In this document: positions 17,101-57,612 of the stretch, piece after piece
How the letters are laid out: every line of letters begins with the position of its first letter
Numbering within the stretch: the first letter of the stretch is position 1
Assembly (NCBI GenBank): GCA_000934665.2
Contig: KZ538635.1
Span: forward strand, 1-57,947
Source of the DNA: Catajapyx aquilonaris
Lineage: Eukaryota
DNA length: 57,947 nucleotides
Direction: 5' to 3'
Position numbers and translations under genes: made by a program
The notes under the pieces: model-generated
What the model saw: the letters and a program-made list of their open reading frames with translations, nothing else
Databases searched by the model: none
Told to the model about the DNA's origin: nothing

Positions 17101-17908
17101 TTCGTTATGACAATGGTTGTTTGTCCATGGCAACAGATTACCATGGAATCAATGTTGCTGATTACATTGCCATGGAAACATGCTGTGCGAAGAACAGGCT
17201 CCGCTGCTAGTGATAAAATAAGAACAACATAAAATAAAAATAATAAAAATCTAAAAATTAGACATTGAATTATTAAAAATACGACGAAAATAAATAAAAT
17301 GTAAATATGACAAAAACGTAAGAAAAATGTAAGTCAAAAAGTAGTTTCTTGAAAAGTATAAATAAAATATGACAACACCACCATCACAACATTTCCCTAT
17401 AAGAGGTAGTCAGTGATGAAGGGAGACGCAAGTTAACTCCATAAAATTACGAACTAAATTAAAACTTGTCAAAATAAAACTATGAACTACCAGTCCCACC
17501 CCCCAACCCTGCCCATCTCAGACAACGGACAGGGTGGCAGGTACCCCGAGCACCATATGACAATGTAAATAATTACATGGGACAAAAAAAATGGCAAAAA
17601 TAAAACGAATAAAGTGATGATAAAATGCATCAAAAAATAAGAAATGTGACAAGCGGCCCAACTGTGTGGTGCGGCGGGCCCCCCGTACTCACAATGGTGA
17701 CAGAGGCCTGCCTGAGCGCCCTGTTCTCCTCCTGCAGAGCCTTGACCCTGAGCTTGTATGTCTCCAGCTCCACTTTCAAGACCCTGTTCTGCTGCTGGAG
17801 TGACTCGATCCTCTTCTGCAGCTGCTCCCTGGAGATGGGCGAAGGGGGCATCATGATGGGAGCCCCGTCTATGGAGCTGGAGTCGCTCTCGCTCGCACTG
17901 TCCGCCAT
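13852..17908 (-). CDS. CCDC6: Coiled-coil domain-containing protein 6 (CCDC6/H4, DUF2046 family), 6 exons, 511 aa
   Basis: Exons 17908-17693, 16970-16588, 16383-16226, 16061-15926, 15637-15247, 14103-13852, with consistent phases (0,2,1,2,0). Signature sequences [73 protein letters not shown]. Confidence 0.96.
14685..15040 (+). mobile_element. Full-length tRNA-derived SINE with poly(A) tail and TSD, antisense in CCDC6 intron 5
   Basis: A-box TGGCGCCGCGGT, B-box GGTTCAATCCC, A25 tail at 15016-15040, TSD TGCTATGCAT at 14675-14684 and 15041-15050. Confidence 0.9.
15247..15637 (-). CDS. CCDC6: CCDC6 exon 5 (Ser/Pro/Gly-rich)
   Basis: ccacag|[12 protein letters not shown]...RTRTVSSP...VPSMV|gtgaga. 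Confidence 0.9.
15926..16061 (-). CDS. CCDC6: CCDC6 exon 4
   Basis: tactag|HTEKMQRY...LSESES S|gtacgg. Confidence 0.94.
16226..16383 (-). CDS. CCDC6: CCDC6 exon 3
   Basis: ttccag|[12 protein letters not shown]...AQQE H|gtaagg. Confidence 0.94.
16588..16970 (-). CDS. CCDC6: CCDC6 exon 2
   Basis: tcgcag|[10 protein letters not shown]...LEAEK R|gtcaga. Confidence 0.95.
17007..17210 (+). mobile_element. Mini non-autonomous Helitron-like element in CCDC6 intron 1; copy 2
   Basis: A|TC...CTAG|T termini, internal ccat(g/a)gcaac repeats, 3' gctgtgcgaagaacaggctccgctgctag. Confidence 0.65.
17693..17908 (-). CDS. CCDC6: CCDC6 exon 1
   Basis: MADSASESD...RQASVTI|gtgagt. Confidence 0.95.
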
Positions 17909-18249
17909 CTCTCTCTCTCTCTCTCTACCAATGCCGCTCAACGGGGACTCTGGGAGGTCACTGCCAGAAGATGTGACGGGGGACGTCCTTTATTCCGTCT
18001 CACAGAAGAAGAGACGACAGCCCTAAGCCTAGTGCACCACACACAGCTCTGGAGTCCTGGTGGGGGAAGGTGCCCAAGGTGGAGTGGTGGAGGGGGAGGA
18101 ATGGGGACCGGTAGCCTAGCTGCTGCCTTTGGGAAGGAGTCGCATAGCTGCTGGAGGAACATGTCGGAATGGAACAGTCCGTGGAACTAAGTTTACTGGG
18201 TTATTAAACCCCTTGGTAAGGTGTAAGAAGATGGGTTATTCACTTAAGG

Positions 18250-18535
18250 TACTTTAATTTGGGGGCTTAACGTCGGCCTATTTCTGCTGCTAAGGCTAAA
18301 CACCGACGCCAGGGGGTGGTCCTCTTGGCCACTCTGGGGATCTTTAACGTGCACTCGCGCAATGTCACAAGCACGCGGGATCGACGGCTTTACTTCTTCT
18401 CCGAAGGAAGGCGCACTCCCACTTTTCTACCACTCGGGGAAAAGTATCACCGACCTCGGCCGCGGGTTCGAACCCACAATAACTTTGGGACTAGGCGAGC
18501 GCGCTAACCACCAGTCCACCGGCGCGCGGCGGCGG
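18250..18535 (-). mobile_element. tRNA-derived SINE with Nin/Deu-domain-like core
   Basis: On -: A-box TGGACTGGTGGT, B-box GGTTCGAACCC, core CCTTCGGAGAAGAAGTAAAGCCG...GTGCACGTTAAAGATCCCCAG. Near-perfect TSD tattcacttaagg 18237-18249 / tattcactaagg 18536-18547. Confidence 0.8.
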
Positions 18536-18786
18536 TATTCACTAAGGCATTGTACACCTTCGACTCTTCGAGGGTTAGTCCGAGGGTAGTCCGGTAGTAC
18601 GTGTACGCAAAAAATGTAACAAGTGAATAACCTCTCGGTGTAAGGCAGCTCCCAGCAGGGTCTGGGTCTGGTATAAAATAATGCATCAAATGACGAGTGA
18701 TCTCAGGTGACACGGCGGATGGCCATCTGGGTGTAGGTGACACCTATAGTTTAATTTGTGTTAATTTGGTTCGCCATAGAACCATT

Positions 18787-18948
18787 AGAACAGCTCTATC
18801 AGTCTTCCCGTCCGTGGACAGGTATCATCGTCTAAACCGCGCAAGAGATATAGCGACAAACGATTTTCGGATTCGGATTCAGCGGACCCTAAATAGGTTT
18901 TATAGCCAACTTCCGGTTTGACAGCTTGACTCTATCCGTCAAGGTCAT
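18787..18948 (+). mobile_element. Same DINE/HINE-like repeat; copy 2
   Basis: ccgtccgtggacaggtat...ctaaaccg...agcgacaaacg...ttcggatt...aaataggttt...caacttccgg matches 1355-1530. Confidence 0.55.
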
Positions 18949-19196
18949 GTCTACTGGCGGGTGTCCTCTTGTGGTTTACTTGGCAACGGAAAATAAGACT
19001 GACACGTCATTCCATGTCGTTTGTTGTCCAATCTGCATTTCTTTGACAACGAGAAAAAGTATTCTCAAATCACGCCCCCATGATTTTCCAATGTTGTTTC
19101 CTGTAAGGTTGAATGTCCCCACGGGTCAGTGACCCTTCCGGCCGCGCTGCACCAGCTGAATAACCCTATGCTTTATTTAATATTGATTACTCTTAC

Positions 19197-19475
19197 CAGG
19201 GAGATATTGTGCTGATGGCATAAGCTTTTCTTTTTCTTAGTTTAGTTGTTGAAATTGTTGAAAGTAACTGTTTCTGTGACGTCAGTTTAACACAATCTGG
19301 CTCAGTGTGATACAGTATTCTAACAGTTACCTGCTATTTGACAGTAGCAAACGCTGCATAAAAAGCGGCTATATTAGTTTATAAGCTGCTTACAGGCATG
19401 TAAACAAGTGACGACGCATTGAAGCCAATTCGGGAGCCGACTGTGGCCGCCATATTGGAACTCCTGGCCAATCAC
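19197..19475. promoter_or_regulatory. Putative CCDC6 (possibly bidirectional) promoter and non-coding first exon
   Basis: Minus-strand donor CTG|GTAAGA at 19196, candidate acceptor gttcctccag at about 18151, TGACGTCA at 19277-19284, YY1-like GCCGCCATATT at 19446-19456, CCAAT at 19468. Confidence 0.4.
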
Positions 19476-20887
19476 GTTAAATGGATGGAGTCACACGACC
19501 ACCTTGTGTCCCAATATGAAGGGGTGTAAGCTAATTTGTATTATTAATTTAGTGAACAAGTTCATTAACAATGTGCACGTATTCAATTTAGAGCTACGTA
19601 TACAGTACAGTCAGTAATAATTAATGGTAATGCTTGCACACGGAACCGGAAATAGACAGTGTGCATCCAAAAATTGCGGCGCGTATATTTTTTTGTAACA
19701 GGTTTTTGATCAGTGCGCATTTAAATACGGTCATTAGGGTTTTATTTTTATCTAATTGCGTTTAATATGTTTCAGGTGCGTATAATGGGTCTAAGGCGTA
19801 ACAAAGGCAGGCTCTTCCATCAGCTTCATAAAGTACAGCCAGTCAACAAAAGGTAAGAATACGTCACTGATTTAAACTGAATTGATTTTTCAAAAAATTC
19901 GGATCAAAAATTTGATACAATTATTATTGAGGTTATAATGCACAGCACTTTGTAAGCATACATCGCATACACACAAGCTCTTGATACACATAAATGAAAA
20001 AAGTAACTGGCGCAGATACTGCAAGCCGCAAGGTAATCTACCTTCTATCGGTTACCGGTATATTTGAAGATTCCAGAAAAGTCGAGGACCTGCCTATAAT
20101 CGATTGTCGACCCTCGCGCATTTTATTACAACTTGAGCAAATTAGGTAATGGATATTACGCCACGTGAAATTTCAAAGGTTATTGAGTGCAGTATTACTG
20201 GAGCACCTGGAGAGCTGGATAAGCAACTTTTTATCAAATATTTCTGAACAACCTACAGTTCAATTAACACCTGACTACGTGTGTTGGTGTCATCTGTATG
20301 GCGATTGAGTGACCGCGTTCCAGCCTTATGGCCCTGCCAGACACGGTCCGTCGCACTGCCCGATGGTGACTCAGATTTCAATGCTTAAAAGTAACGTAGT
20401 ATGATTTGATTCCTATCCCAGTGCATGTTGTTCATATCTAAATTACCCTTTGTGATTAGCAGGCTTAGATGACACTGAATCCTCCGAACTACCCATTAAA
20501 GAAAATCGCATCAGGGTTATCAATCTGTTGATGAGCACCTGATTGACCCCTACCTGATTGCAACGCGCAATTTTCCATTTATTCTCGCAAATGAATTACG
20601 CCTCTACCTGACAATGCCAAACGCAGATGCACATTACATGTTACAGGTTTCCAATGCACTGATACCATATCGTAGTAATGGCACCGGATCATGTTAAGGC
20701 AGATAAAAACCAATCTCACCAGGGTGTAGTTTGAACATTTTTCATAACTGACATTCATCCCATTTGTAATTGTAATGACTTGTCATCCATTTTGCATGGC
20801 GTATTAGTCCATCCCAATGTGCTGTCAAACCCAAATCTGTTTTCTGCTTTGGACTTAGTGGGCTTGTTTCTATTTTATGCTGGACCT

Positions 20888-21077
20888 TGTGAGAGCCCGC
20901 CCCCTTCTGGTCATGTGATGTAGGCGGGGCATGCGCACTGCTTCTGGCTTTGGCCAGGGGAGAGTCAGTTGGTTATCAGAGTCTGGAGGAGTCTGTACTA
21001 AAGTGGCGACCTGGAAGGTCCAATAAACCAGTGTCCATGGAATGTTTTCTTGGTACAGCTAGCCCGGGGTTGTCACA
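20888..21077 (+). mobile_element. Solo LTR (190 bp), gypsy-type 4-bp TSD
   Basis: ACCT|TGTGA...TCACA|ACCT, internal TCAGTT and AATAAA (about 21022), GC-box-rich U3-like part. Confidence 0.75.
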
Positions 21078-24000
21078 ACCTATACTGTATAAACTAAACT
21101 GCAACGACGACGACCCTGTGTGAACCTCTTGTTTTTACTGAACTTCTGGTATCATACGATACCCATAGTCGTAAGATGAGTGTACGAGCGTATCTCCTCT
21201 TTTCACCTTTCCGTAATTAAAGTGGGAAACCCCTCTTATCTCGCCTATGTCATGATAATTAGAACGTAATCCCCCTCTAGAGGTAGAGAAAAGACTAGCT
21301 ATAGGATGAGGGTTTTGGGGTCCCCATTTTCGGTGTTCGTGTCTTCCTGATCGATATGGGATCGAATAGGATTTCCTCCTGGAAAGATGTTGAGAGTCTC
21401 TCACCCCCTCGTCTCATGCTAGGACGGCTTTCCTGTACAGGTTTCCACAGTACAGCCTTCAAAAGCCTTAGCCTCTTTTTTTGTCTAAAATTTTTTCCAT
21501 CAAGCCTAAGGCTGGTAATGGAAAAAAAGGGGGCTGGACCTTGTTCCATTTTTAAGCCCACACCATTTTCTTTTTTGACTCCAAATGGAAAAGGGGTAAT
21601 CTGGATATTGAAATTCATTTGAAGGGATTGCGGGGTGAAAGGGTGAATTTTGAATAGATTTTTTTTTTCGTCGCTGGTTAATCTGGGATGTGATTATCCT
21701 TTTTTGTGATATGTAATAGTGGGTGCATATTTGAATTAAATTAACTGCACGTTTGTCATGAAAATGAGTTTTGTAATGAAAAAAAGGGTGTGGAACTGCA
21801 TGGGGGAATACTCAGTTTTTTATACCAGCCGGGGAGTAATATTAGAACCCTTCTGGAATTTCTCATCAGAAAATTTAATAAAATGACGTACAGGATGGTT
21901 TCGAAAAAGCCAGATCAGCAACATGGCAAGAATTTTGGTGATGAAGGAGCGTGGTAGAGATTAGCAAGTAATTTGCAATCCTGACCGGATTTTGCTTTAG
22001 GGCCTGATGGAGAGACAGGTCTAAAACCGACTTCAAAAATGTACTGATTTTATTAAAATTGCATTTATTTTCAAAATAGGATCATATATTATGATGCGCA
22101 ATTTTCCATATGTTTTCCTTTTATGTGATTGGGATCAAAAATATAACTGATATATTTCCAATTACAGCATCATTATGCAAAGCTTGTTTGTTGGGTTGCA
22201 TCATGCCAGGATGAAACAAAGTATCGTTACTTAATACTGCCATTTTATAGCAATGGACTTATTTACTATAAAATGCTCCTACGAACAAATCAGCGAATAT
22301 AGTTAAGATTGATTCAATCAATATTATTTCAGCCCACGAAAATGCATGATGGGGGCCATACACAGAGCCTGTCCTTTTGTATTTTTCTGAATTCAGCAGC
22401 AACTCCCGGAGTTTCTGGGGAAGCTCGATGTAAACAACTTGAAAGAACCAATAGAATTTAAGGGTTTGAAGCTGAAGATTCCCTGGTGGTCCTTTTGAAG
22501 AGGCTGAACCTGTAATGACTCTCTTCGACAGCTTGCCTTTGACGACCCTCCCTATAGAAAAACCGGATTTGCGACGAGTGTTTACCAAGCGGGGAAGGTT
22601 TTAGAATAGTTAGGTGGCACCACCCACGCTAATGCTGATTCGTTGTCATGTTAATTGGCAAGTGGATCCACCATGTGGCGCTTGTGCCCAAAAATGGATA
22701 AGTTGTGCCCAATTGTACCTAATGAGCCCGGAGGAGACTTGGTACTAACAAAGTTGGTCCGAAAAAAAAGTCGTGGAACCGTAACCAGACGGCCTTTTCA
22801 ACAGGGTGTGCACACACACAAAAGAAGGGTCAATCTAATTAGGATTGATTGTACGGGTTGGGTCAAATTGGGTTTAATTGTATTCCTTCTGTTCGTTAGA
22901 ACGTGATTTACGCTGGAGAGGAAAAATATAGGGGGGGGGGTGTCTTGTGGCACACACAAAAAAATAGTAGACTTTATCTGTCTCTATTCCGGTACGAATC
23001 GATACAGAATTGCAACCTTTTTTGGCTCATGCTTCAATTTCAGACCAACTTTGGACCGTAAAAAAACGAGTGACAGTCAAAGTTATTTAGGCACTAAAAA
23101 AAGACAATTTGGAACTTCGCTTTGGCCGGGCATTTATAACCTCCAATCTCGAGCACATCAGGGGAATTGCGAAGTACGAAAATGTCGGGCTCTTTTTTAT
23201 ATTTTGGCCAAGTGCCACTTCCAACAGTTATACTGTATGGCTGTAATGTTATAAATATTAGTGCTGGTGTATGCAAAAATATTTTTGGCTTTTGAAATAA
23301 TTAGAAGAAAAGGCAAATATATGTTTAGGAGCTTCTAGAAAATTGAGAAGGAAAATAGCCAGAAAATAACAAACTGTTATGACTTTTTCAGACAATTTTT
23401 TTGAAGGATATGCAATATGAATTTTATTGATAACTGTACACACACAATTTACGAAAGTGGAATATTTTGAGACAATCATTTTTTGAAATGACTTTGTCAC
23501 AAATGTTTATTGCAGTTTCCAAAAACCATTCGATTTCAAGCAGGCTTTCCCAGTTGTCTCCTCGAAGGCGTCTGTACCTCAAGGAAATAAAGGGAACCAG
23601 AGTGTATAACATGCAAAATAGGAGGATCCAATCTCAAGTCGAGGAAAAACGCATTGGAAATGGTTCCCACTACGAATTCGTTCTGACCAAAAAAAAGAAA
23701 AAAAGAAAGTAGGATTGTTAGTGTGGTCAATAAACAGACTGTTCCCTTACGTTTCGATTTCCAGAGGTTCTTATTTCGACTTTGACTGAAGTGCCTCCAG
23801 CCTCCTTTTGGTGGCTAGATATTTTTTTTTTCGCTATTTCTTTCTTTTTGCAAGGAAATGAAAAAAAAAAAGAAAATGTGAGAGGAGAGAACTGAGGGAA
23901 AAAGGGTGCTTTTGTGCCATTGACCAGTGGAACAGTAGAAGCGGATGATTTCTAGTTCTCTATTGTCCTTTGACTGACCGTATATAGGAAAAAGGAATGG

Positions 24001-24339
24001 CTGAAAATTGAACATCGGGGATATCATAAAGTTCAATTGCAAGTTGTAATTGTGAGTAATAAAATATGTTCACCATAATTACCACATGTATGAGCTGTGT
24101 TGCATTACTTTACAATTATTAATAAAATTATTAAAGACATTTCCGCATTTCAGCAAGTATACAGGTCGGAATAATAATTATTCAAATGACAACATAAGAC
24201 TGAGTTGACGTAACTTTAGGTTCAAATATATGGAAATGAATTTTTTCCTCCTCAACTCATAATTAAACTGCCATACACCTGCCTTGCTCATGACGTCATA
24301 TGAACTTAGCAACGCGGAAGGTACTGACGCGACATTCAC

Positions 24340-26400
24340 CTTCTGATGGGACCCTTCATCTCACCAAACAGGCTCCCAGGTTTGAATTTCCAAGTCAGTG
24401 CGTCGTTGATAAGATGTGCTATACGAGATAGCAATGTAATAATAATTAGTGCGCAACTTTTGAGTATGTCAGTCAGCATACCTGACGGATTCGAGAACAC
24501 TATACAAGGTATGTGATATTCATTTGAACACTGGATATGACCCCTTCTCACTTGGCCATGAATAAGTTGGACTTTAACTTCATCATTAGTGTACAGTATT
24601 AGACCATGACTTTCACTCAAGTGCGACCTAAAATAATACCAGAGGTTACCACGCCTGGCGAATCATTGTTATTGCATGGGCAGCGCAGGAGGGCCCACCT
24701 GTTGTGGATGACACTTGAATGTCATCTCCTTCATTTTTTATTGGGCATTTCATGAAAGCTGCACCTGACCTCTATTGCTCTGCACTTTTCTTGGCTGTTC
24801 CGGTTTTTTCTAGTGATATCATATTCTGGTATAACTTTGGTGAAGATTAGTATACGACGTGAGTCATTTTCAACAACCTTGACAATCATGCGCTGTGGGT
24901 ATTTTGTGGCATGAACAGTGTTTATTTTTTGCACCTTTTGAGATACTGCGCCATTTCCCATCTGGGTCCTGGAGCTGAAAGGCTGTACATTTCTCTAGTT
25001 TTATATTCTAGTATATTATTAATATGCGAAGTGACTTTCCTTGTACACTAAGATTACGTAGGGGGGGGGGGAGGTGAAATTGTGTCACACTTGCAAGTGT
25101 GTTTTCCCCCTCGTTTCGAGTCATACCCCCATCAATATGTACAGGTAATGCAAAAAAAAAGTTGTTTGGTGACTTCATAAACGGTATTGTATGTCAGTAC
25201 CAGTTATGCAAAGATGTCCTTGAATTCATATAGTAAAAAAAGAAAAGTGGTCAAACAACCTTCGGTCTTTTTTTAAACTCATGCTAATTGAAGCAGCGTA
25301 TATTCAACACGCAGGTTCATACAATGTATGGCTGGAACAGAATGAAAGTAAGTCAGCGGATCATAACAAACTTATCAATTATTTTTCTTAATTTTTGATG
25401 AAATTTAGAAGAATTTCCCCGTGCTATTTCTGGTGGGTTGTATAGCTGAATAATATTGCTTCAATTGTTTTATTTAAAAATTGAATTATTTTAAGTAATT
25501 TTTATTTAAAATTGAATTGTTTCGATTTTCACTAACTGCACTCTCTTTCACCTTCTGTTGAAGCGTCATTCTGTGCAGGATTACCTGCTCTCAGAAAGAG
25601 TTCCATCACGTCCAACAATACCTAGTGACAGTCAGGCGAAGATGAAATGCTGCACAGACTTAGGTATCAGAATTCCATATCCCTGTAAGAGTTACACCAT
25701 TTTTTTCCTCCACCGAATACGTACAACAAAAGCCTGCGCCATCAATCACAGCTCTGGAGGTGTCACCCACAATAATGGCCATATTGCCACTGGTCCAGGT
25801 CGATAACCTTCACTCCTCCGATGATACATCGAGTCCTTAATAATCACTCACAAATACCTTTTCCTATACCACCATCTTGTGTTTCCCCGAGCATAAATTA
25901 CTTTGAAACCCTAGTATTGAGAACTGACGTCAAAAGGAAGTTGGCAGGAACCAGCAGCAATTAAGAAAAGCTGGTTCTCATATTTCTGACATGGAAAATT
26001 AATGTGGATCAGCTCAAAAGACATTGAAAAACTGTATGCACACTTTCGGCTGAATATTCGGTTACGCGGAAGCCTCCTAATGATATTTTCTAGGAGAAAG
26101 TAGATCCATTATGCAACACCCTGTTCCACTCGGGAAACTTGCGATTCTTCTTCTTCGTACTATATACAGTAGTTGGGAGTTTGCCTTCATATGACCAGTT
26201 CATGCGATTTTGAAGTGTCGATTTATTGCACTGGATGTGTCTTTTCAAACGGAAATTAGTAGTAAAAGAACTAGCAAGACAATCCAGCTTTGCCTATTGA
26301 TGGATAAACATTTCCAACAACTGACTGTATTACTCAGAAGACCAAACATTGCCAACTGGGCCATATAGTAATATCGGAATTCCTATCAAGAGTGCGTTGG
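24340..26400 (-). pseudogene. Decayed multi-exon gene or spliced non-coding transcript of unknown family
   Basis: Exon-like blocks with GT/AG borders and short introns at about 26091-25902, 25863-25585, 24974-24699, 24627-24482 and 24418-24340. The last two join in frame (SHLSESHGLILYTNDEVKVQL...NPSAHLINDALTWKFKPGSLFGEMKGPIR). The upstream blocks contain stops or frameshifts. Confidence 0.35.
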
Positions 26401-27311
26401 AAAAGCACGTTTGAAGCGCAGTAGTGGTGGCAAAGGCATTGACCCTTTTCGCTTCAAAATCACTCGCATAGGGCTAGGCGAATGAGATTTTCAATTCCAA
26501 TTTCCCCTTCCATGATTTGACCCAAACTCATCACATGTAAGGGGGTGGGAAGAGATTAAGGCTAGGTATACGACGTTTCTGGCCTGGATGGTGTTATGGC
26601 AAAGGATGTATCTACCCGCATTTTGTATAGGCTATACAGTGTTCTTGATTGGCCATCTTGTATCAGAAAGTGCCACTATCGATCGTACCCTCGAGAAAGA
26701 AACTTGTCTTGGAAAAAAAAGCGAAGAAGAAACATAGGCTGGGAGGCTGGATGTTGAGAAGCCATCTTAGCACACCTTGAGGTCATGTCTGACCCTTAGA
26801 CAAAATGTCAACATGAATCGATTTTGACTGTAGAAACAGTTTTTTGAAGAACCGTGGGACACCTTGAGGCGACAGCACCTATTTAGCACAATAAGTCAGG
26901 GTGATTGTATAGCATGTCTATTGTAGGCTATAATTTGCACGAGGAACAGCACAGGTCAGCCACACGTAATTTCAAGGACAGGTGTAGCAAGATCTGCAAG
27001 ATTCACTCACCCCTCAAGTATAGGACATACGTAGCCGCAGGCAGCACGTGTTCTATTGTATATAGTAAGAGCAAGTTTTCTCCAGGGTTAGTCTATTCTG
27101 AGGGACTAGCAGTAATAGTCCATTGTGCAGCATTTCGAAGCATATTGGATTACAATAAATATATTGGTAAGTTGCATTTTGAGATAATAATCATTCAGGG
27201 GAGTATATTTGCATTTGAACAATCACTCAAAGGATAAGTCATATTTTGTGCAATGCTGGACCATTCGTGATTCAGAGCTGCAAGTTTGGAAGGTTGCGTG
27301 GAGTACACAAC

Positions 27312-27400
27312 ATGTGGCGCCATCTGAGAGAGCCCGTACACCGGATATTGACAGCGTCCAGTCTTCTACGCCACCGACATGTACCGGTACCAAACAATAA
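27312..27400 (+). CDS. FPPS-like exon 1 (Arg/His-rich N-terminal leader)
   Basis: ATG TGG CGC...AAT AA|gtaagg, phase 2, matching the acceptor ttcgcag|C at 27461. Confidence 0.75.
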
Positions 27401-29048
27401 GTAAGGCCTTAATATACAACAGGAAAGGATATTGAGATGTAATTTGCAAACCATTCGCAGCAATTTGCCAACAGCCGCTACCATCCTGGGGGAAGACCGC
27501 GAAGGTTACATGTCTGTGTTTCCCGATGTGGTCCATGACTTGACTCAACTGTACGAGAACGTCAGCTTGAAAGAGACGGCCGCTTGGCATCATAAACTTC
27601 TGAAGTACAATTTGCAGGGAGTCAAATTCAGCGGAAGTATGGTATTTTTGACATCCTACAAAATCCTGGCAGGTAACGACACAGGCGATATGAAGATGGC
27701 GCATCTTATGGGCTGGTGTGCCGATATGGTAAAAAGCATAGTTATATATATTATGTTATATTATATTATATTATATTATATTATATTATATTATATTATA
27801 TTATATTATATATTATATATAATATTATATATATTATAATATAGGCCTTATGGTATTAGCCACATGCCTTAACGCTTAAATGAAGTTGCAGGCGGGCATG
27901 TTGGTTGTGGATGACTTAATGGACGGAAGTGAGATGAGAGGAGGTCAGCCTTGCTGGTACAAATTGGATCAGGTTGGACCAAGGGCTGCGAACGACGCCA
28001 ATTTTCTCAATTCAGCGATCTATGCACTGATGAAGAAACACTATAAAGGACAGTCTTATTACCTCGACTGTCTGGAAGTGATTAATTTGGTAATTGTTCA
28101 GTGCTGGTCATACTTTTCCGATGCGGCAGACGTGCAAATCGAAGTGATAGGGTGCGAGCCGTGCGAGTAAGAAATGGTAGCCCTTGGGTGACGTCACTGG
28201 CTGGGGACAAACATTGCCCACCAGCCGGTGACGTCAGTCAAGGCCTACCTCTTCTTACTCGCACGCCTCACATTCTATCACTTCGATTTGCACTTCTGCC
28301 GCATCGGAAATATCGCAAGCAGTATGACGCGATTAATGTCCAACACTGTTCAAGTAGCACTATAATTAACAAAATTGTGAAACATCTCTTTGCATTCACA
28401 GGCTCAGTTAATGACTAGTGTAGGTCAGACGTTCGACATGCTGTCCATGGGTCCAGACTCGAGGCCCAGACTGGACCTTTTTACAGAGACAAATTACGCC
28501 GTACTGCTAAAGTACAAAACGAGCCATAACTTTTTCATAGCTCCTGTGGCACTTGCCATGTACATGAGAGGAATCAAGGATCCGCATGTTCACTTAAAGA
28601 TGGAAAAAGTTCTGTTGGACATGACTATGCGTTACCAGGCCAGAAATGACTTCATGGACTGCTTCGGAGACTTTAAGTTCACTGGGAAGGAAGGAAGGGA
28701 CATTCAAGAAGGAAAATGTTCCTGGTTGGTAATCAACGCCCTGAAGAAGGCTGATAAGAAACAACTGCAGGTTTTGCATGTCAGTACAGTTCTATTCTGT
28801 ATGTAAGAGTGATAACGCACGAAGTCATGTTTCAGGAATGCTACGGAAGTGACGATCCTGCCAAAGTTGCAAGAGTTAAAGACCTATACGAAAAGTTGGA
28901 ACTGCCTCGCCTTCATTCTAAGTTCCAAGAGGTATCTGGTTTATCTGTACTTCAGGATATTGAGAGACTGCTGCCGTCCTGGGAGTTGCAAGAGGTGTGC
29001 AGAACTGTGATGAACATTATCTACGATGGTGACTGTGCCAGTGTCTAA
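27312..29048 (+). CDS. Divergent farnesyl diphosphate synthase-like (trans-IDS fold) protein, candidate IDS-derived terpene synthase, 5 exons, 383 aa
   Basis: Exons 27312-27400, 27461-27728, 27886-28089, 28402-28779, 28836-29048 (1152 nt, open). FPPS hallmarks: SVFPDVVHDLT, GWC, FARM DDLMD, GQPCWY, NDA, GQTFD, KYKT, SARM-equivalent NDFMD, GKEGRDIQEGKCSW, ECYG, VKDLYEKLEL. The fold call is secure; the enzymatic activity is inferred. Confidence 0.92.
27461..27728 (+). CDS. FPPS-like exon 2
   Basis: NLPTAAT...YMSVFPDVVHDL...GVKFSG...MGWCADM|gtaaaa. Confidence 0.9.
27741..27843. repeat. (TATAT)n AT-rich microsatellite in FPPS-like intron 2
   Basis: Direct reading: tattatattatattata... Confidence 0.95.
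27886..28089 (+). CDS. FPPS-like exon 3 (FARM DDLMD)
   Basis: aag|LQAGMLVVDDLMDGSEMRGGQPCWY...EVINL|gtaatt. An alternative acceptor cag at 27891 is possible. Confidence 0.9.
28099..28348. mobile_element. Palindromic MITE family A, copy 1 (FPPS-like intron 3)
   Basis: CAGTG...CACTG ends, near-complete internal inverted symmetry (gatgcggcagacgtgcaaatcgaagtgatag / ctatcacttcgatttgcacttctgccgcatc), homologous copies at 39217 and 57366. Confidence 0.85.
28402..28779 (+). CDS. FPPS-like exon 4 (GQxxD, KT, NDFMD)
   Basis: tcacag|AQLMTSVGQTFD...KYKT...YQARNDFMD...QVLH|gtcagt. Confidence 0.92.
28836..29048 (+). CDS. FPPS-like last exon
   Basis: tttcag|ECYGSDDPAKVARVKDLYEKLEL...IIYDGDCASV*. Confidence 0.9.
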   Translation, partial: ECYGSDDPAKVARVKDLYEKLELPRLHSKFQEVSGLSVLQDIERLLPSWELQEVCRTVMNIIYDGDCASV

Positions 29049-29052
29049 TAAA
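29047..29052 (+). terminator. Candidate polyadenylation signal AATAAA overlapping the stop codon of the FPPS-like gene
   Basis: GTC TAATAAAAGG followed by a T-rich tract at about 29068-29080. Confidence 0.5.
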
Positions 29053-29211
29053 AGGGCAGAAATCATTGTGATTTTTTATTCACTGTACGTACCGCCCGAA
29101 GATAGTACAGTATTTTATCATGCAAACTGCTGTCCTGATATTGATTCAGTTCGTTATATGTACAGTATATGTAAAAATATATGTACTGCATATTGATTCC
29201 CTGTGTGGAGC

Positions 29212-29213
<2 letters not shown>

Positions 29214-29279
<66 letters not shown>
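29214..29279. repeat. (TAA)22 microsatellite
   Basis: Direct reading. Confidence 0.97.
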
Positions 29280-29280
<1 letters not shown>

Positions 29281-32200
29281 CTTTATGAAGTAATTAAAAC
29301 GCATTTTAAATTTGGAAAATAACCACTTATCACATTAGTATACTGCTTGTCTAGGTAAGACAGTTTCTGACATCAATATGTAGCCTTACTATCGGGTTCA
29401 AATACTTTTGGCCACTTTATCCTGGTCTTGAAGCAACCCTTCACACACACACACACATTGACACGTGGGGTCTGTGCGAAGGGCTGCTTCAAGACCAGGA
29501 TAAAGTAGCCAAAAGTATTTGAGCCGGATAGTACAATTATGCAGATATCGCCACCTACTTACAGCTGAAGCCATATTAAGTACCGTAACGCAAATCAGAG
29601 TGTGAATGTCCTCCGATAAAATTACTCGCATGACCTTTTCCACGACTGAAAAATAAAAAAAGAGGGTGATTTCATTGGTCTGGGCTATTTCACTGCATGG
29701 ATAATGTGGCGGAGTGGCAGGCTTGGGGGGGGGGGGAGGTGGTGGTGGTTTGGAAGGTGGGAGGGAATGCATTTGGGGCAGAAAATGACGGTGTAATTCC
29801 CAGCGTTTTAGAGAGCAGCACAAAAGCCATTAGTTACGTGTCATTACAACGAAAGGAGGTTGTGTCGCGTCTCTTAAGCATCAGAGTTCAGAGGACCTTA
29901 ATGACCTTGTTGATAGAAAAGAGCTGGTCACATAACGAACCACTGGGTGATCATAAGAGCAGACGATTGCTTCGTGATGATGTCTTTTTGTGGTCTAATA
30001 TGAAGTGTCTGTGATTAAGTTGCGTAATATTATTTCAGGAAAAAATATTATTTTAGTATGACCTCGTGCCTCGTGTCAGTGTGTTTTCAAGGTGCTATTC
30101 GAACAAGGAGTTATCAAAAATATTGACTGCTAGGTTGAATGTATTCAGATTTTTCAAATTTGAAACACACTTTAAAACCCTGCATGTTACTGTAAATCCA
30201 TCCCTTTACATTCATTCATCACAACGGAACATATGGGCCCAACACATGAACCAACATGAAAGAAACTGCCGACATGAAAGGGGACCCACATTTTGTTCAT
30301 CACACTAGCCATAATGCATTTGTGGCCCTGATGGCCTCTACTTTTTTAAATAAGAAATACCCTTCTCCGCTGAAGAAAAAAAAAACGGATGCGTGGAAAC
30401 CAGGGTAAAACGTAGTACCTGTTGCGCTCTCTGCATGGCCACCGGAGCCAAGTTGAGTCTGGTTGAGGCTCAGTCTGCCGATACCCGGCTTCCAGTTAGG
30501 TAGGGTTCTGCTCGTGTCTCCTACCAGGGTTAGGCTAATCCGCTAATCAAAGCAAGGTAAGCCCCTAGGTATTTGTTTCATGTTGTGCTGTTTAAAGCCG
30601 AGTGTATCCAGGTATTAGCTAGACCTTTGTTTGTAGGAGTAAGTTTGCCTCGGAGGTACATGAAGTACGTAGCTACATGCAACTACCATTTATGAATACT
30701 GTATGCATGCATATTAAGTGAAAACACACACGTATAAGTGTTGCACTTATCCACAAACGGAATAGCAAAATTGGCATAATCCGATTTCAAACTCATATTA
30801 GCAGACCTATGCTATTGAGTCAATGTATGGATTTGGCATTGTAGTTATTGACTGCTTGGAGTATTATTTGGGCTGTGTGTCGCGTATTGCTCTACCCGCA
30901 ACCCCACCCACCACAGTCGTCAATCTTGTGCAGAGAGAGGCATTGGGATATGGGCCGTGACTAATTTCGGAAATTCAGAACTATTTACAAGTTCTCTCAG
31001 AGTTTCCAATTTCCATTCCAGCTATTTTTAAACAACTCGATGTTGTAACTTACTGCGTCAAATTAACTGTAATATTTAGGTCAGGTTTATGAAGTATTAT
31101 TAGAGTTGTCATATAAGTTTTATCATTAAAGCATGATGCACTGTACGTGTCCCCTCAGGTTTATTAGAAATTTGTAGGGACTGTAGGCAATATGATATGA
31201 CATGTTTGAACGCCGCCTAATATTTATTAGTAGATGATATTAGTATTCCAGTCTGAACTTATCTGTAACTTGTAAGGGTTTTTTTTTTCCTGCCTTATTC
31301 TTCATTGGCGCTATTGCATTATGCACTGGCGCGTGTAAACGACGGGCTGTTTGCATAATGTTGCTTAACGTACAGTGGGCTGCCTGTGAAATATTTAACC
31401 AGCGTCAAATTTTTACACAGCATCGATTTTAGGCCCAGGTGTCTACACTGCTCTGATCAACTGATATCAAAAATGTTCTGAACATGGCACGAAAAAAAAA
31501 GGCTTTTGCTTCATCCCACGGCATGGATAGAATATAAGCCAGCTTCCAGTGGATCAAGCCAAAAGTATGCTTACCGAGAAACTATGCGGCAAACTATTTG
31601 CGGAAACACTAAAGGCTTCGGAAGTTTGTTTTGTTAACGCCAGGGTCGGCTTCATAAAATTGTACTGTTTTTTTATTACATCATACTGTAACCATGAAGT
31701 TAAAGCAAGTATGCGTTTTTTTCCGTCTTGACGTTGTCAAATTCAACAAAGTAATCGAAGGGAAGGCGTTTCCTGTAGACGAGATGCACTTCCACTAAAA
31801 CGTTATCGATTCCCACCACAGGACACTTTCCAGTGGGGACAAATGACACGAGACGAGTCCCCTAGTTGGTGTCGGCCTAATTGAAGCCAAAGCGGGCAGG
31901 TCTGAAATATTGAGCAGGTGGAATTATGGATAACGTAACGTTGGCCCCAGGTCTCGTTGTGCTTTGGGAGGAAAATGAAAATGTTCCATTTTAAGAAAAT
32001 CCATGACGAATTGCATAAATATTTATTTATTTTAGAAACAGTTCCGCTGTACTTTCAGGCACACCTGAATGCACAGAATGGTTAGTGCAAATTAATTAAA
32101 CAATAGGTGAAACAGTGTACAGTGCAAGTTCCTGTTTAACTTAATCGAACCCCCCAAAAAATTCTGGTGCATCGATCTCAGTTTTTGCGTTGGTGCACCA

Positions 32201-35200
32201 CGCAACATTGTTTTAAATTGTTAATTTTTAGTTTAAAATTTAAGATTATTGAGCTGATCCCAGCACTATACCTTTTGTAAACACAAAATTTTTGCCGATT
32301 CCGCTCTATGCATAGTAAGCATTATGCAAACTTTCCCACATCACATTTTCGCAGCATTCTGGCGAATTAACGATGCGTTTCCAAATCCGAAAAGTCAACA
32401 TTTAATCCGCGAGGCTGTGTAGGTGAAACGATCACTACCAATATAACTGCAGAGTTAACATTTACCTCCCACAAAAATAACCAATGGGATACATAGCACT
32501 AGCTGAATTTTCTTCTTTGTGTACGTGTGTGTTTATATGTAACATAACACCTTTAGAACATTTTTTGGTCCAAATCCATACAATAATCAGGGGGTTTTAA
32601 CCCGATTCAGTAGTTCTCAAACCCTGACATATTGGATTCGATCCGTGCTAAAATGAGACGATTTGTACACACATAAACTGGGCGACTCATTCGCTTCCTA
32701 TATTGATCTTGCATCGCAATTAAGGTTGCTGCAGTAGTAGGGATGCAGTGTCGAAGTTGAATCAAATAGAAAACCAATTTAACCTTAGCGAGGTGCCATT
32801 CGGCCTGATTGTGATTCCTGAGTGGGGAGGATTGGAAACAAGGGAGCAATGCAGTGAAGCAATGGTCGCTTGGGATCAAGGAGAATTAGTAGTCCCTGAG
32901 ATAATTGCAGGCACGTGTCATGTTTTAGAAGAAGGTGAAGCTGAAGGAGAGGATGGAAGCAGAATCTTTGACCTTTATTGCAGTATTGAAATTGGAGATT
33001 ATTTTGCTTGGAAAGACACCCTCAGCCTTCAGTCTTTTCAATGAAATATTTGCTTAGAACGTCAAGATGTTTATTTGTTTAAAAAATAACGTTGATTTTT
33101 ACATTTTAAAAAATCACAATGATCAGACACTGTAAACTATACATAAATCCCAAACGCAATATTGGGATGAGTCATGCTGGGTTTGAGTCAGGATTTTGTA
33201 GCACATGTCACACCCTGTTCATCTCAGGGTTTTAAAATTTTTAGATTGAGTTGTCAGCCTGTCGTGGGGCACGTTAAATTGAGGCTTCATTTTCACATGT
33301 GTGTGCACTGTATAAGCATATGAAAGTCACGTAAATTATCAGAGATGTTCCATGCCACTTACCTGCCACTTACGTCCCAAAAAACACGTTTGAGGTGTGT
33401 CGGTTTGGCAGGTTTTGGCGTACATTTTGAGTCGAAGTGACATGTATGACACAACTTTAAATTTAGATACTTCCTCTCAGCTGAAGTAGCCAACTAAAAA
33501 TGACATCACTATTTTTGCATTTTCCCATCTAAATTAGAAGTATGCCAGACCCTTTATTGGGAGCAGTGGTATGCCACTTACAATTTCATCAAAACTATAA
33601 GTTCAAAGCAATAATAAAGCAAACTTTTCGGTTCCATTAAATGCCACAGAGGATATTGGCGATATTACTAGGATTTCATAAGGTGGATATTTCCTCTCGG
33701 AGTTCGGATCAGGCATGTTGGGGCAACATTCCAGAGTTGTAAATTGGATGTGACTGATATAATCGTTTTGGGTCGAGGGGACGTGATCGAGGCTAAATCC
33801 CTCACAATCCTCACCACCAATAACAACGATTCAATAAACCACCAGTTTTGTCAAGTTTTTTTTTTTGTGTGTGTGTCCAAGCCTGATAGTGTTGCCCTAG
33901 ATAAGCTTACTCTACTGTATTTTTCTACCATTATTTTTTTGCCTACGTATAGCTTGGAGGCTGCAATGCGAGTTCACAGATACAGGGTTTTAGAGGAGAA
34001 AAAACTCTGGGGAATCCAGGTGGTATTTATTTTCTAACCTCAGAGACACTCAGAGAACCAAATCATTAAAATCCCTCAGGTCAGTAGGTTTCAAAGTGTC
34101 GGCTTACTTTTGCCAAAAAGAACTTTGTATAAAGCCTATATTTAGCTTGTAAATTGCAAAAAAATGTAGGGGATCAAAATCTTTGATGCTTCTTCTTCCT
34201 AATAACGCGAGGCAGCTAAATTCATCGCTTCTCAATAGTGGAATATGTGCCTTACACGTCCCTTGAGTATCGTTACGCCGGATTAATTTTTCAAACGTAC
34301 CATGTACAGACTTTGAAGTCATTATTAAGCCTAAAAGGAACTTCTCAGCATATTGCAGTTCACTGCTTATGATATAGCCTTCATATATGTTGAATTACTT
34401 TTATATGATGCCGCACCGATTTCTCATTAGTAACTCTGCACTAGGAAGATCAAGCATGATTTCCATGTTTTTGGCCATAATTTTGGCTCCAATTTTGTGC
34501 CTAATAATCTCCATATGTAGGCCGACATGTCCCTGCATTTAGCAGACTAATCAGTGTTCACCGCAATCTACTAATAGTACTAATCCGCTTATGTAGTGTA
34601 GGCACAATTTGCGTAGTTTATGTTAGCAAAACAGAGTGTTTTGCTAGCCTCTGAGGTATACTTATGAGGCAAAATTAAGTTGTAAATCTACTGCAGACTA
34701 AATACTTAAATAAACTAATTAAGAATTAGAGTGATACCACTACATATGTAAACATTACTCACATCCGCATGCACTGGCAAACCGGCTAAGAACATGACTC
34801 AATTTAATATTTCAAACGGTAATATTAATATTCGTTTCCAGTATTTATTTTGCAAACCAACTCTTTTAATGCCCACACTTGTACTGTACCTTGGGATTAC
34901 ACATGGAAAAAACCAGCTCATTTTCCATTTTTGCATTGCACTGTCGTCACCTCTCGAGGGAAGTACATAATCAGAATAAACCGGACTAAGCTCGAGTTAA
35001 ATTCTCCCAAAGTAACATTCCCGAGATTATCTTGACGATTTAGGTAGCAATTCAGTCTGTAACCGACCTCATGGAAATAAACTTGGGGCCTCCTCATTTG
35101 TAGAGGCCCGAGTACCGTTGTTAGCTGGGTGTAATTTTCCCTGGGAGATACTCAGCAGCATCTTGAAGCCTCGCATTTCCTAGAGGGCATGATTTATCGT

Positions 35201-38200
35201 CAGTATATATGTGGTTGGAAGAGACCCCTCAAAATCAAGTTTTGGTTTAGGTCCGTAAATTTCCATTATGTATCTCGAATCATGGCGTGGTGGGATGGGC
35301 ATGTCCTCTTATGAATTTGGCATCTCCCAGAATAATAATTCTCTTCTGGGAATTAAGAAGCAGAGTGGATTTGTGGACTGGAATAATGATGACAGTGAAC
35401 TACTGGTGATATATGATATGGATTGAAGTTAATGATAGACTAAAGTTCAGCCCTACCTTGAACTCTCTTTTTTTAACTTTAAAAGAATGGGTGATGTGAA
35501 TCTAAATTTCTGAACCGTCTTCGTGCCTTGGAGTCGATATCGGCGAACAACTGTAAACCGCAGCGAATTCTGTAGGCTCTGAGGCAATCGGTTCAGACTC
35601 GGAAATGAAGAGGACGCACATCTTTCCCACCTCTTTTCTTCATTTGTTCTCGGAAATACCTGCCGGAGATATATAAGGCGGAGTAAAGTTACCTAACTTT
35701 CCACGAGTGATTCCCCATGGTGGCTTGTTTCAAAGTTACGATACAGAAATTTGGGTGGGCGTATACGAGAACTGTGGAAAGTTTTAGTTTGTTAGGTAAT
35801 TTAAGATGTATAGTTGCGGTTGAGGGGCATGATTATTATATTTTCTAAGTACGTTTTAAGCCTGGGTTATATTAATTGGAAGCTTCGCTGATAATATGGC
35901 TGCTGTGATAACTAATTCAAGCACGGATTGTAATCATGCAGTCAAATGTGGTGGGACAACAAACTAATTGCGGACAATCTGTAGAGCGCCCAAGTTAATT
36001 TTATTATGGCAAATTATCATAGCAAAAGACCGCCGGTAATAACAACTGGGGGGCTCGACAATCCCCCAAAAAATTAATGAGCACTGCTGTACATTCCTTC
36101 TCGTTAAAAATGGTGTGCGTTCCTGCAGGCTTTTAATTTATTGAAACATAATTCGTACTTTGGTTACATGCAGGATATATTTTGATTAAAGAAATTATTA
36201 TTATAATTATTTATTTTTCTGTACCCCTGGGGAATCATACAGCACATGCCTGGCATAGCAAACAATAACATCGCAGCTATGAAATAATAAAATAAAACCA
36301 ACGTCGCCTGCAACTAAAACGCAGCAAATACCTCACCAAAAAACAGGGAATAATAGCACACACCGAAAATATGTAATATAATTAACCTCTTTTCTCCCTC
36401 CGCGTATATAAATGAAACTCGGATCTATGCCGAGAGAGAGAGCCCAGCCCAACTCATATTTACATTAATATGCCCCCTAGAAACCTGCTTCACTAGGCGA
36501 ACACACATGCTCTACATCACGCTACACCGCCCAAGAAACTCAAACATTAATGGCTGCTCCTCAGCAGATCGAACTTCTTTACCCGAAATTTTTCATGAGA
36601 CCCTCTGAAGGCATAAGGACCCTCGATTTTGTTGAATATTCCTATACATTGTAACCCTCTGTTTCAATGCACATAATGTTGATCAGTTGTTCAATGGCAG
36701 TAGGTAAACAAATGGCATTTCCGAGCCTTCCTTTGTCAGCCTGGGACTCCTGCTGGCTGACTCTGTAATCTGTGGGTGACAATCCCGGACGCTGTGACGC
36801 ATTAGTGTGGTGTTAATTGCGTTGCTTGCTTACTTTTGACGGCGGCCGATGGTCAACTTGACCAAAAAAAGGGACAAAGGTGCACTCATGTGTAGGACAA
36901 GGGTGTAATTAGCGATTGAGGATGAATAGCAGTTGCTAATTTTTGGAGAAAAAAAACTATGTAATATAATGTATATTAATATCGTAGTGGGTTATCCTTC
37001 TGGTTGGTCCGCCGCATTACCGCGACGCTTCCGATTGGCTCTGTTCCGCGCATGCGCAATGGGCGGGAGACAGCGCCTCTGGTGGGTGAGGGCGGGAACT
37101 ATCCATTCTTTCACTAACTGTCGGAGGGTCTACGTTAAGCGAGAGGTTTTTCTAGTAATATATTAGTTAATATTAGCAAACTGTTTCATCAGGCTTGTCA
37201 GGCAATGAGCCGACCTTATTAATTATATGCAGACCGTCTCTTTAGTGCCCATAAACAACACCGTAACCTCTCCTTTGTGCTGATTGACGACCCTCATTGT
37301 CATCTCCAATATTCCAGCAGCCTATGCCTTGAAGCGACGCATATATTGACCCCTCTCAGTGAAAACATGTCTATTTCTCAACATCACTCTCCGGAGAAGG
37401 GCTTCCGCCCTTCCGGCCATGATGTCGTCTCTGAAGTTCAATGCGGCGTACTTTAGGGAGAGAGGTAAAGGCAACTAATGAACCGAGGGACCGGTAGCAT
37501 CGGGACAGAACAATCCCAGGGAAAGAGTCCGTCTAGTTATCTCCGGGCCATCATCTCCCAAAATGCTATGGAACAATACCCTTAGCAAGTTGCGTGCCCC
37601 TCCATTATTAGCCTTATCTGCCAATGGATTTTCGGAGAAGTGTTAGGCACTCTAGGGAAGCAGATGAATTTCGGGGAGTCATTGTCGCGAAATATGAGGC
37701 GTTAGGGAATGGCATTGTTTGGGGCTCGTTGCTGGGAAAGTGTGTCGGATTGTTTGGTTGGAAGTTGAGGGGGAATTGCAGCGAAATTAGTTTTCAGGGA
37801 AATAGTGCAGATGAAATGTGAGGTGATGTCGAAATGAAGTTGCTGGGATTGTATGGAGCATATGGAGCTTGCATGCAATGCGCAATGGTAATGAGGATGG
37901 ACACTTGCTTAATGTTACATCCCAGTACATTTGGAGTACATACTGTAACTACATATCCTAACTTCTCAAAAAATAGGCATGTCCAAAATATTGCGACCTC
38001 AGTGGTTCAGCCATACTTGGTAGGGTTTCATAAGAGCATTTCTTTGGTACAGTGCGGTACAAAAGAAATGCTCTTCTGAAGCCCTACCGGGTGTCTGGAG
38101 TGGAGGGGGAGAGGTTGCCTAATCCATTTTTTGAGAAGTTATGCTGTGGGTACTGTATGTTCAATTAGTTTTCCGTTACATTGGAAACGAAATGGGGCAG

Positions 38201-40052: not shown

Positions 40053-40085
40053 NNNNNNNNNNNNNNNNNNNNNNNNNNNNNNNNN
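40053..40085. other. Assembly gap (33 N) flanked by poly-G
   Basis: Direct reading. Confidence 0.99.
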
Positions 40086-57365: not shown

Positions 57366-57612
57366 CAGTGCTGGACATTAATTCCGGCATACTGCTAACG
57401 ACATCTTCCAATGCGGCAGATCGAAGTGATAGAGTGCGAGCCGTGCGAGTAAGAAATGGTATGCCTTGGGTGACGTCACTGGCTGGGGACAAGACTTTTT
57501 TCCATTTGCCCCCCTAGCCGGTGACGTCATTCAAGGCCTACCTCTTCTTACTCGCATGGCTCGCACTTTATCATTGTCGCTAGCAGTACGACGCGATTAA
57601 TGCCCACTACTG
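57366..57612. mobile_element. Palindromic MITE family A, copy 3
   Basis: TA|CAGTGCTGGACATTAAT...ATTAATGCCCACTACTG|TA (Tc1/mariner-type TA TSD). Confidence 0.85.

Follow-up and report, generated by a model that had tools for sequence, protein, structure and literature searches.

An expressed farnesyl diphosphate synthase paralogue with an apparently dismantled isopentenyl diphosphate site: a candidate terpene synthase gene in Catajapyx aquilonaris

Does a gene with the fold of a farnesyl diphosphate synthase (FPPS) still encode a chain-elongating enzyme, or has its product turned to the formation of terpenes? This question is raised by a gene on the + strand, at 27312-29048, of a 57,947-nt stretch of the Catajapyx aquilonaris genome (contig KZ538635.1 of assembly GCA_000934665.2, positions 1 to 57,947), which was analyzed as a whole and is called the window below. 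That terpene synthases (TPSs) have been recruited from isoprenyl diphosphate synthases (IDSs) is established for several winged-insect orders, where it probably occurred many times. The gene belongs to the PF00348 family and has five exons and an open frame of 383 aa; our data support the view that it is intact, spliced and transcribed and that its product is not a canonical FPPS. Judging from the sequence, there is about an even chance that it is a lineage-specific FPPS duplicate and an independently arisen candidate for an IDS-type TPS. The gene model comprises the following features, in which IPP stands for isopentenyl diphosphate, FARM for the first aspartate-rich motif, MITE for miniature inverted-repeat transposable element, UTR for untranslated region and X1, X2 and X5 for sequencing runs.

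27072-27153, + strand: upstream transcribed segment (5' UTR exon), from X5 record 17, a cDNA-like contig
27312-27400, + strand: exon 1, with the ATG and an Arg/His-rich N-terminal leader
27401-27460, + strand: intron 1, 60 nt, GT..AG, excised exactly in X5 record 17 (record letters 260/261 join 27400 to 27461)
27461-27728, + strand: exon 2, where the IPP-binding motif 1 is eroded to GVKFSG (27618-27635); X5 allele S89G at 27636
27729-27885, + strand: intron 2, 157 nt, GT..AG, with an AT-rich microsatellite at about 27742-27843 and a rival acceptor at 27891/27892; unbridged by contigs
27886-28089, + strand: exon 3, with Leu-Gln (the Q96 equivalent), G and M at -5/-4, FARM DDLMD at 27910-27924 and R-G (R113 lost) at 27937-27942
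28090-28401, + strand: intron 3, 312 nt, GT..AG, containing a MITE-like inverted repeat at 28115-28310
28402-28779, + strand: exon 4, with GQTFD, KT (K200-T201), N-F (Y204N, S205F), YQ (F239Y, Q240), NDFMD at 28645-28659 and K257
28780-28835, + strand: intron 4, 56 nt, GT..AG, skipped in X5 record 21 (255 letters on the shorter side) and unskipped in the DNA runs X1 and X2
28836-29048, + strand: exon 5, with the acidic tail IIYDGDCASV at 29016-29045, then the stop codon TAA
29049-29137 at least, + strand: 3' UTR; X5 record 21 extends to 29137

The initial annotation had described an open, five-exon gene of 383 aa with the FPPS fold. This was confirmed by the exon model, by matches to PF00348 in exon 3 (E 6.9e-13) and exon 4 (E 9.8e-25), both over the 27-bit cut-off, and by matches of exons 2-5 to solved FPPS chains in PDB, which are collinear and in the expected order; the length of 383 aa needs the AAG acceptor of exon 3. 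There are two candidates for this acceptor: AAG at 27885/27886, leading to 383 aa, and CAG at 27891/27892, 6 nt downstream, leading to 381 aa. The AAG acceptor adds Leu-Gln, and the stretch ahead of FARM then aligns gap-free to FPPS; a tblastn search with the nearest relative of the protein (P0003, see below) likewise begins exon 3 at 27886. By signal alone the CAG acceptor appears more typical, although a neighbouring gene, for PAPS synthase (PAPSS), seems to use an AAG acceptor. Both the 383-aa and the 381-aa forms are possible, the exon 2/3 junction lying beyond the reach of all contigs. Exon 1 and the start of exon 2 place about 45 residues ahead of the FPPS core, and no in-frame ATG lies upstream of exon 1 after the stop at 27216-27218. 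The Arg/His-rich leader may have a targeting role, and it appears mitochondrial rather than plastidial. A retrogene origin was ruled out, since the gene has four introns.

Five sequencing runs contain the stretch, none of them recorded as RNA, and contigs of X1 and X2 (DNA) and of X5 were placed on the window. The X1 and X2 contigs cover the gene continuously and retain introns 1 and 4, whereas in two X5 contigs 27400 is followed directly by 27461 and 28779 by 28836, both introns being removed; a third X5 contig stops at the 3' end of exon 3 and has 30 letters that could not be placed. We read X5 as cDNA-derived, which means that the gene is transcribed and that introns 1 and 4, at the least, are spliced as modelled. 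Four coding differences separate X5 from the window, namely E7K, silent V9, S89G and silent L339; since there are only four (two non-synonymous and two synonymous), this polymorphism says nothing on selection. X5 record 17 runs in the order 27072-27153, 25 other letters, 27248-27400 and 27461-27685; these 25 letters, which replace 27154-27247, reflect either an indel that differs among individuals or an intron of the 5' UTR whose ends are fuzzy.

To determine which residues of the active site are changed, the spliced protein was aligned with 177 relatives (28 from a word-indexed search and 149 from a HMMER pass), and 15 IPP-contact positions, as marked in Table 1 of Rebholz et al. (PMC10108439), were scored. 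We used contact residues rather than the literal published motif patterns, those being too strict. Positions are given in the coordinates of human 1zw5_A or in the numbering of the 353-aa human FPPS, where, for example, R74, R127 and D257 of the former are R60, R113 and D243 of the latter. Seven of the 15 positions are changed (G70V, R74G, E107D, R127G, Y218N, S219F and D257N in 1zw5 coordinates; G56V, R60G, E93D, R113G, Y204N, S205F and D243N in the 353-aa numbering), while 112 of the 178 alignment rows have no IPP-contact change at all. The R127 column holds Arg in 121 of 132 filled rows, the R74 column in 103 of 120, and the D257 column holds Asp in 153 of the 177 relatives. In 1zw5 coordinates, FARM DDLMD, R126, K214, T215, Q254, D258, D261 and K271 are kept, as are K71 and Q110, the latter in the 383-aa form only.

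Like canonical FPPSs (human 1ZW5, PcIDS1 8A6U and P0003), to which exons 2-5 are collinear, the protein thus has FARM, R112, K200-T201, Q240 and K257. Unlike them, it carries only one of the two canonical DDxxD motifs, FARM DDLMD, the second motif being NDFMD (D257N/D243N), and it is changed at R60, R113, F98/F99, Y204, S205 and the basic tail. From the basic clamp of the IPP diphosphate (K57, R60, R113 and the basic C-terminal tail) Lys alone survives, and the tail has turned from the ...IYKRRK of FPPS into an acidic ...IIYDGDCASV, which exceeds the usual length by three residues. For the leaf-beetle enzyme PcIDS1, K133, R136, R189 and R427 with F315 are described as holding the IPP diphosphate, and the Asp equivalent to D257 as binding Mg at site B (PMC10396970); only the Lys equivalent of this clamp is kept in the window protein. 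The aromatic pair at -5/-4 before FARM (F98 and F99), which limits the product to C15, is replaced by G and M. All residues that the initial annotation had listed as kept (DDLMD, R112, GQTFD, K200-T201, Q240 and K257) or changed (GGKYNR to GVKFSG, RRG to RGG, F239Y and the tail KIYKRRK to IIYDGDCASV) were verified against the 1zw5_A coordinates; the list had missed D243N (NDFMD), F98G/F99M, Y204N/S205F, E93D and G56V. Among solved structures, exon 4 is matched best by PDB 8a7b_A, a leaf-beetle IDS chain with Asn opening the second motif, which by comparison with 8a7r_A is apparently an engineered D319 variant, so that a D-to-N structure in an insect enzyme is already available. The NDxxD motif of PMC7839719 was dropped as a parallel to NDFMD, as it concerns unrelated prenyltransferase folds.

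IDS-type TPSs of insects include TPS1 of Phyllotreta striolata, the TPS of Murgantia histrionica (MhTPS) and the GPPS/myrcene synthase of Ips pini (PMC10108439, PMC6140472, PMC11665903); IDS-type TPSs are reported from several winged-insect orders, with 126 predicted among UniProt insect sequences (PMC10108439). With these enzymes the window protein shares the FPPS-type alpha fold (PF00348), a kept FARM and non-aromatic residues at -5/-4, the last being the feature described for insect IDS-type TPSs by Lancaster et al., who found that they replace the aromatics at these positions and that restoring Phe abolishes MhTPS activity (PMC6140472). The heuristic of Rebholz et al. classes sequences with substituted IPP contacts in motifs 1-5 and the second motif as TPS-like (PMC10108439); motifs 1, 2, 3 and 4 and the second motif are all affected here, so that the heuristic, a predictor and not a proof, assigns the window protein to this class. 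The loss of the aromatic Y218 and the change S219F also occur in predicted medfly TPS-like proteins (PMC10108439). There are differences as well: motif 1 lacks the insertion that is a hallmark of beetle IDS-type TPSs, and R127Y and R74W of the insect enzymes are absent, both positions being Gly in the window protein.

To see whether the pattern is more than drift, we considered 54 columns conserved in at least 90% of 72 canonical full-length relatives; the canonical set was defined by the absence of changes at the 15 sites, which fixes those columns as conserved without biasing the state of the window protein. Changes were found in 7 of 14 IPP-contact columns versus 5 of 40 other conserved columns (Fisher one-sided p 0.0074). 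The 35 of 40 non-IPP conserved columns that are kept compare with an overall identity to P0003 of 47% (binomial p 1.4e-7), and P0003 itself is unchanged at 54 of 54. Among the relatives, D257N (21 of 177) accompanies the loss of the Arg clamp, both Arg being kept in 3 of 10 rows with Asn versus 95 of 104 rows with Asp. The change pattern is not random and points to selective erosion of the IPP site, with the predicted ionisation machinery kept. We therefore consider it unlikely that the gene is a non-catalytic or decaying copy, be it a regulatory dimer partner of a canonical FPPS or a transcribed paralogue under relaxed selection. Its strongly accelerated evolution (see below) would fit such a copy, as would a known paralogue with similar substitutions and no detectable activity (PMC10108439); but the frame is open over 383 codons, the four GT..AG introns are intact and the transcript is spliced, FARM is complete, 35 of the 40 conserved columns outside the IPP contacts are unchanged, and the changes gather in one sub-site instead of being evenly spread. 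The neofunctionalised terpene synthase proposed in the initial annotation is partly supported, at the sequence level: the protein is non-canonical, its IPP site appears selectively eroded, and the insect heuristic classes it as TPS-like, while terpene synthase activity and the proposed link to a pheromone or defensive secretion are predictions.

The same residues resemble those of another FPPS duplicate, the plant chrysanthemyl diphosphate synthase (CDS), which is described as differing from farnesyl diphosphate synthase by four changes, T201G, D243N, F239Y and R351G (Liu et al., PMC3518182). The window protein has F239Y and D243N and carries Gly in place of R351, three of these four diagnostic changes, a match that the initial annotation had overlooked; exons 3, 4 and 5 each have 4kk2, a solved chimera of CDS and FPPS, among their PDB matches. 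This would be expected of an irregular, CDS-like enzyme of non-head-to-tail coupling, which would accept a second allylic diphosphate where IPP was once bound and form a diphosphate or alcohol of cyclopropyl or branched type. T201 is kept, however, and R60 and R113, which would hold the second diphosphate and are not listed as changed in CDS in PMC3518182, are additionally lost; D243N is not specific to irregular coupling, because it recurs in 21 of 177 relatives and is widespread in eroded animal paralogues. The plant enzyme also has a separate origin in another kingdom, and the leader of the window protein does not look plastidial. On balance a coupling enzyme is quite unlikely, but it stays a rival.

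The open pocket would also suit a prenyltransferase that still elongates chains but has an altered product length or substrate (GGPP-type or longer, GGPP being geranylgeranyl diphosphate); the gene could even be the sole, fast-evolving FPPS orthologue of its lineage. G and M at -5/-4 open the pocket, and replacement of the two Phe by Met/Ser turned the M. histrionica FPPS (MhFPPS) into a GGPP synthase (PMC6140472). The pocket change alone therefore proves nothing, as this replacement by itself sufficed for the switch. K71, Q110, R126 and K271 survive, and the canonical FPPS available for comparison, P0003, is a database protein; no second FPPS copy was found in the window, and we attribute weak tblastn matches at 19266-19490 (E 0.15) and 37256-37474 (E 0.078) to chance. 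This explanation is nevertheless quite unlikely, given that the protein has neither R74 nor R127 nor a basic tail, that an active IDS without them was not met in the literature examined, and that the sister P0003 shows no such change at any of the 54 conserved columns.

The relationships of the protein bear on whether a putative terpene synthase arose here independently. In the word-indexed search the best matches were 49% identical over exon 4, and the HMMER pass over 1.84 billion representatives gave 1407 matches at E <= 0.001, the best of them 47-48% identical. No match of this pass fell below 1e-30; the libraries searched contained no close relative, and a search of the ESM Atlas returned generic FPPS clusters only. 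The nearest relative, P0003, is a database protein of 387 aa that is 47% identical, has fully canonical motifs and, like the window protein, carries an N-terminal leader.

All trees were built from database relatives, without characterised TPS sequences. In a quick tree of 108 rows (rows of 290-520 aa plus P0004, with four near-duplicates and three chimeric-looking rows dropped) the window protein pairs with P0003 at a Shimodaira-Hasegawa-like approximate likelihood ratio test (SH-aLRT) support of 100, and in a quick mixture-model tree of 54 rows at 99. The finished careful tree of 33 rows, hand-chosen by removing seven very long rows and most canonical rows, places it as sister to P0003 with an ultrafast bootstrap (UFBoot) of 100 and an SH-aLRT of 99. 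In this tree its terminal branch measures 1.35 versus 0.21 for P0003 and is thus about 6.5 times longer; Tajima counts of unique changes are 61-64 versus 18-24 (p 1e-5 to 1e-6), demonstrating accelerated evolution. The approximately unbiased (AU) test rejects grouping it with seven eroded paralogues, of which one comes from a beetle (log-likelihood difference 54.4, p 0.002). Unlike insect IDS-type TPSs, the window protein thus groups with a canonical FPPS, away from the eroded cluster that contains the beetle sequence. Its branching apart from the main eroded cluster, seen in the tree and in the AU test, would fit the independent origin that had been raised as a possibility.

What such an enzyme might do can be outlined from these residues. 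An expressed and constrained FPPS duplicate would have its homoallylic (IPP) site dismantled and its machinery for binding and ionising the allylic diphosphate preserved (DDLMD, R112, K200, K257 and the second motif, with Asn for a Mg-B ligand). The two Phe that close the chain pocket are replaced by Gly and Met, and the pocket floor has gained a Phe. The most likely start would be the Mg-dependent ionisation of a single prenyl diphosphate, geranyl diphosphate, farnesyl diphosphate or a longer one, and elimination, cyclisation or capture of water could then yield a terpene. The origin of this function would be separate from that of the IDS-type TPSs of beetles and bugs. Observed are the exon structure, its splicing, the pattern of residues, a rate of change that is raised and biased to certain sites, and the place of the protein in the trees; its catalytic activity, substrate, product and biological role we infer.

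Several observations weigh against a terpene synthase of independent origin. The activity is a prediction, and the strict published motif patterns over-call, the canonical sister P0003 failing two of five. A flea-beetle paralogue with similar substitutions is reported to have neither IDS nor TPS activity (PMC10108439). Some binding of IPP is conceivable, because K71, R126 and K271 are still present, as is Q110 in the 383-aa form. If used, the acceptor at 27892 would remove two residues just ahead of FARM and might cripple the site. As for expression, the type of the X5 run is unrecorded and it is not listed as RNA, and a 111-nt X5 contig (28320-28430) spans the boundary of intron 3 and exon 4 unspliced; this boundary adjoins a very high-copy repeat. 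The group compared in the AU test was defined after the tree had been seen, and the relatives are mostly unnamed. No gene for a pathway partner was found nearby, none of the window's 130 other open reading frames (ORFs) of 70 aa or more reaching a Pfam cut-off. For the same reason a biosynthetic gene cluster is unsupported; one sub-threshold RAMP match among the 130 ORFs looks like chance.

Two neighbouring genes were recognised in the window, the first of which places the host lineage:

10190-12765, + strand: PAPS synthase (ATP sulfurylase and APS kinase), compact, in seven segments with short introns
about 15200-18000, - strand: CCDC6-like coiled-coil and Pro-rich exons, recognised by eye from ORF translations

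Over 603 columns the PAPS synthase and a locust protein are 79% identical; for two exons the best identities reach only 85-86% and 73%, so that no annotated close relative exists. In a tree of the joined segments with 46 named matches it falls within the insect clade (SH-aLRT 100) as sister to all sampled winged insects (support 90), with malacostracans outside. The host would therefore be a hexapod-allied lineage outside the winged insects, and we take the placement no further. The insect IDS-type TPSs named above differ in this respect, being from winged insects. For non-insect arthropods, the parts of PMC11665903 and PMC13638087 available to us describe microbial-type TPSs only, and the words 'IDS', 'isoprenyl' and 'prenyltransferase' are absent from the available text of the latter. 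A limited literature search found no IDS-type TPS outside winged insects, which is not proof of absence.

We put forward only tentatively, as a reading of the sequence that may well prove wrong, that a wingless-grade hexapod lineage outside the sampled winged insects made an FPPS duplicate terpene-forming on its own, by way of F239Y, D243N, R351G and the loss of R60 and R113, partly converging on plant CDS. If true, an IDS-derived terpene synthase, or else an irregular terpene enzyme, would be on record outside winged insects for the first time, alongside the terpene synthases of microbial type that non-insect hexapods are already reported to have, and a lineage outside winged insects would add an independent IDS-to-TPS recruitment. 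The locus would then be a natural experiment on which residue losses suffice to move the fold from elongation to ionisation-only chemistry, and the gene lends itself to expression and assay as an inexpensive, clearly delimited target.

The repeats in and around the gene include two inverted repeats:

28115-28310, in intron 3: MITE-like element with 90-nt inverted arms, 88% complementary and 16 nt apart
29387-29533, just downstream of the gene: hairpin-like inverted repeat with 64-nt arms, 91% complementary and 19 nt apart, flanking a (CA)n run

The MITE-like element of intron 3 belongs to a very high-copy family in this genome, because in the DNA runs the contig depth over it is about 16,000-36,000 versus about 30 in the flanks; a second partial copy lies near 57469-57486. 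The repeat at 29387-29533 is probably another small mobile element. The microsatellite in intron 2 (27742-27843) is of an AT-rich pentanucleotide type, and an (AAT)n run lies beyond the 3' UTR at 29215-29280; contigs of X1, X2 and X5 all break at both. At 40053-40085, 33 N mark an assembly gap between G-rich and C-rich low-complexity sequence.

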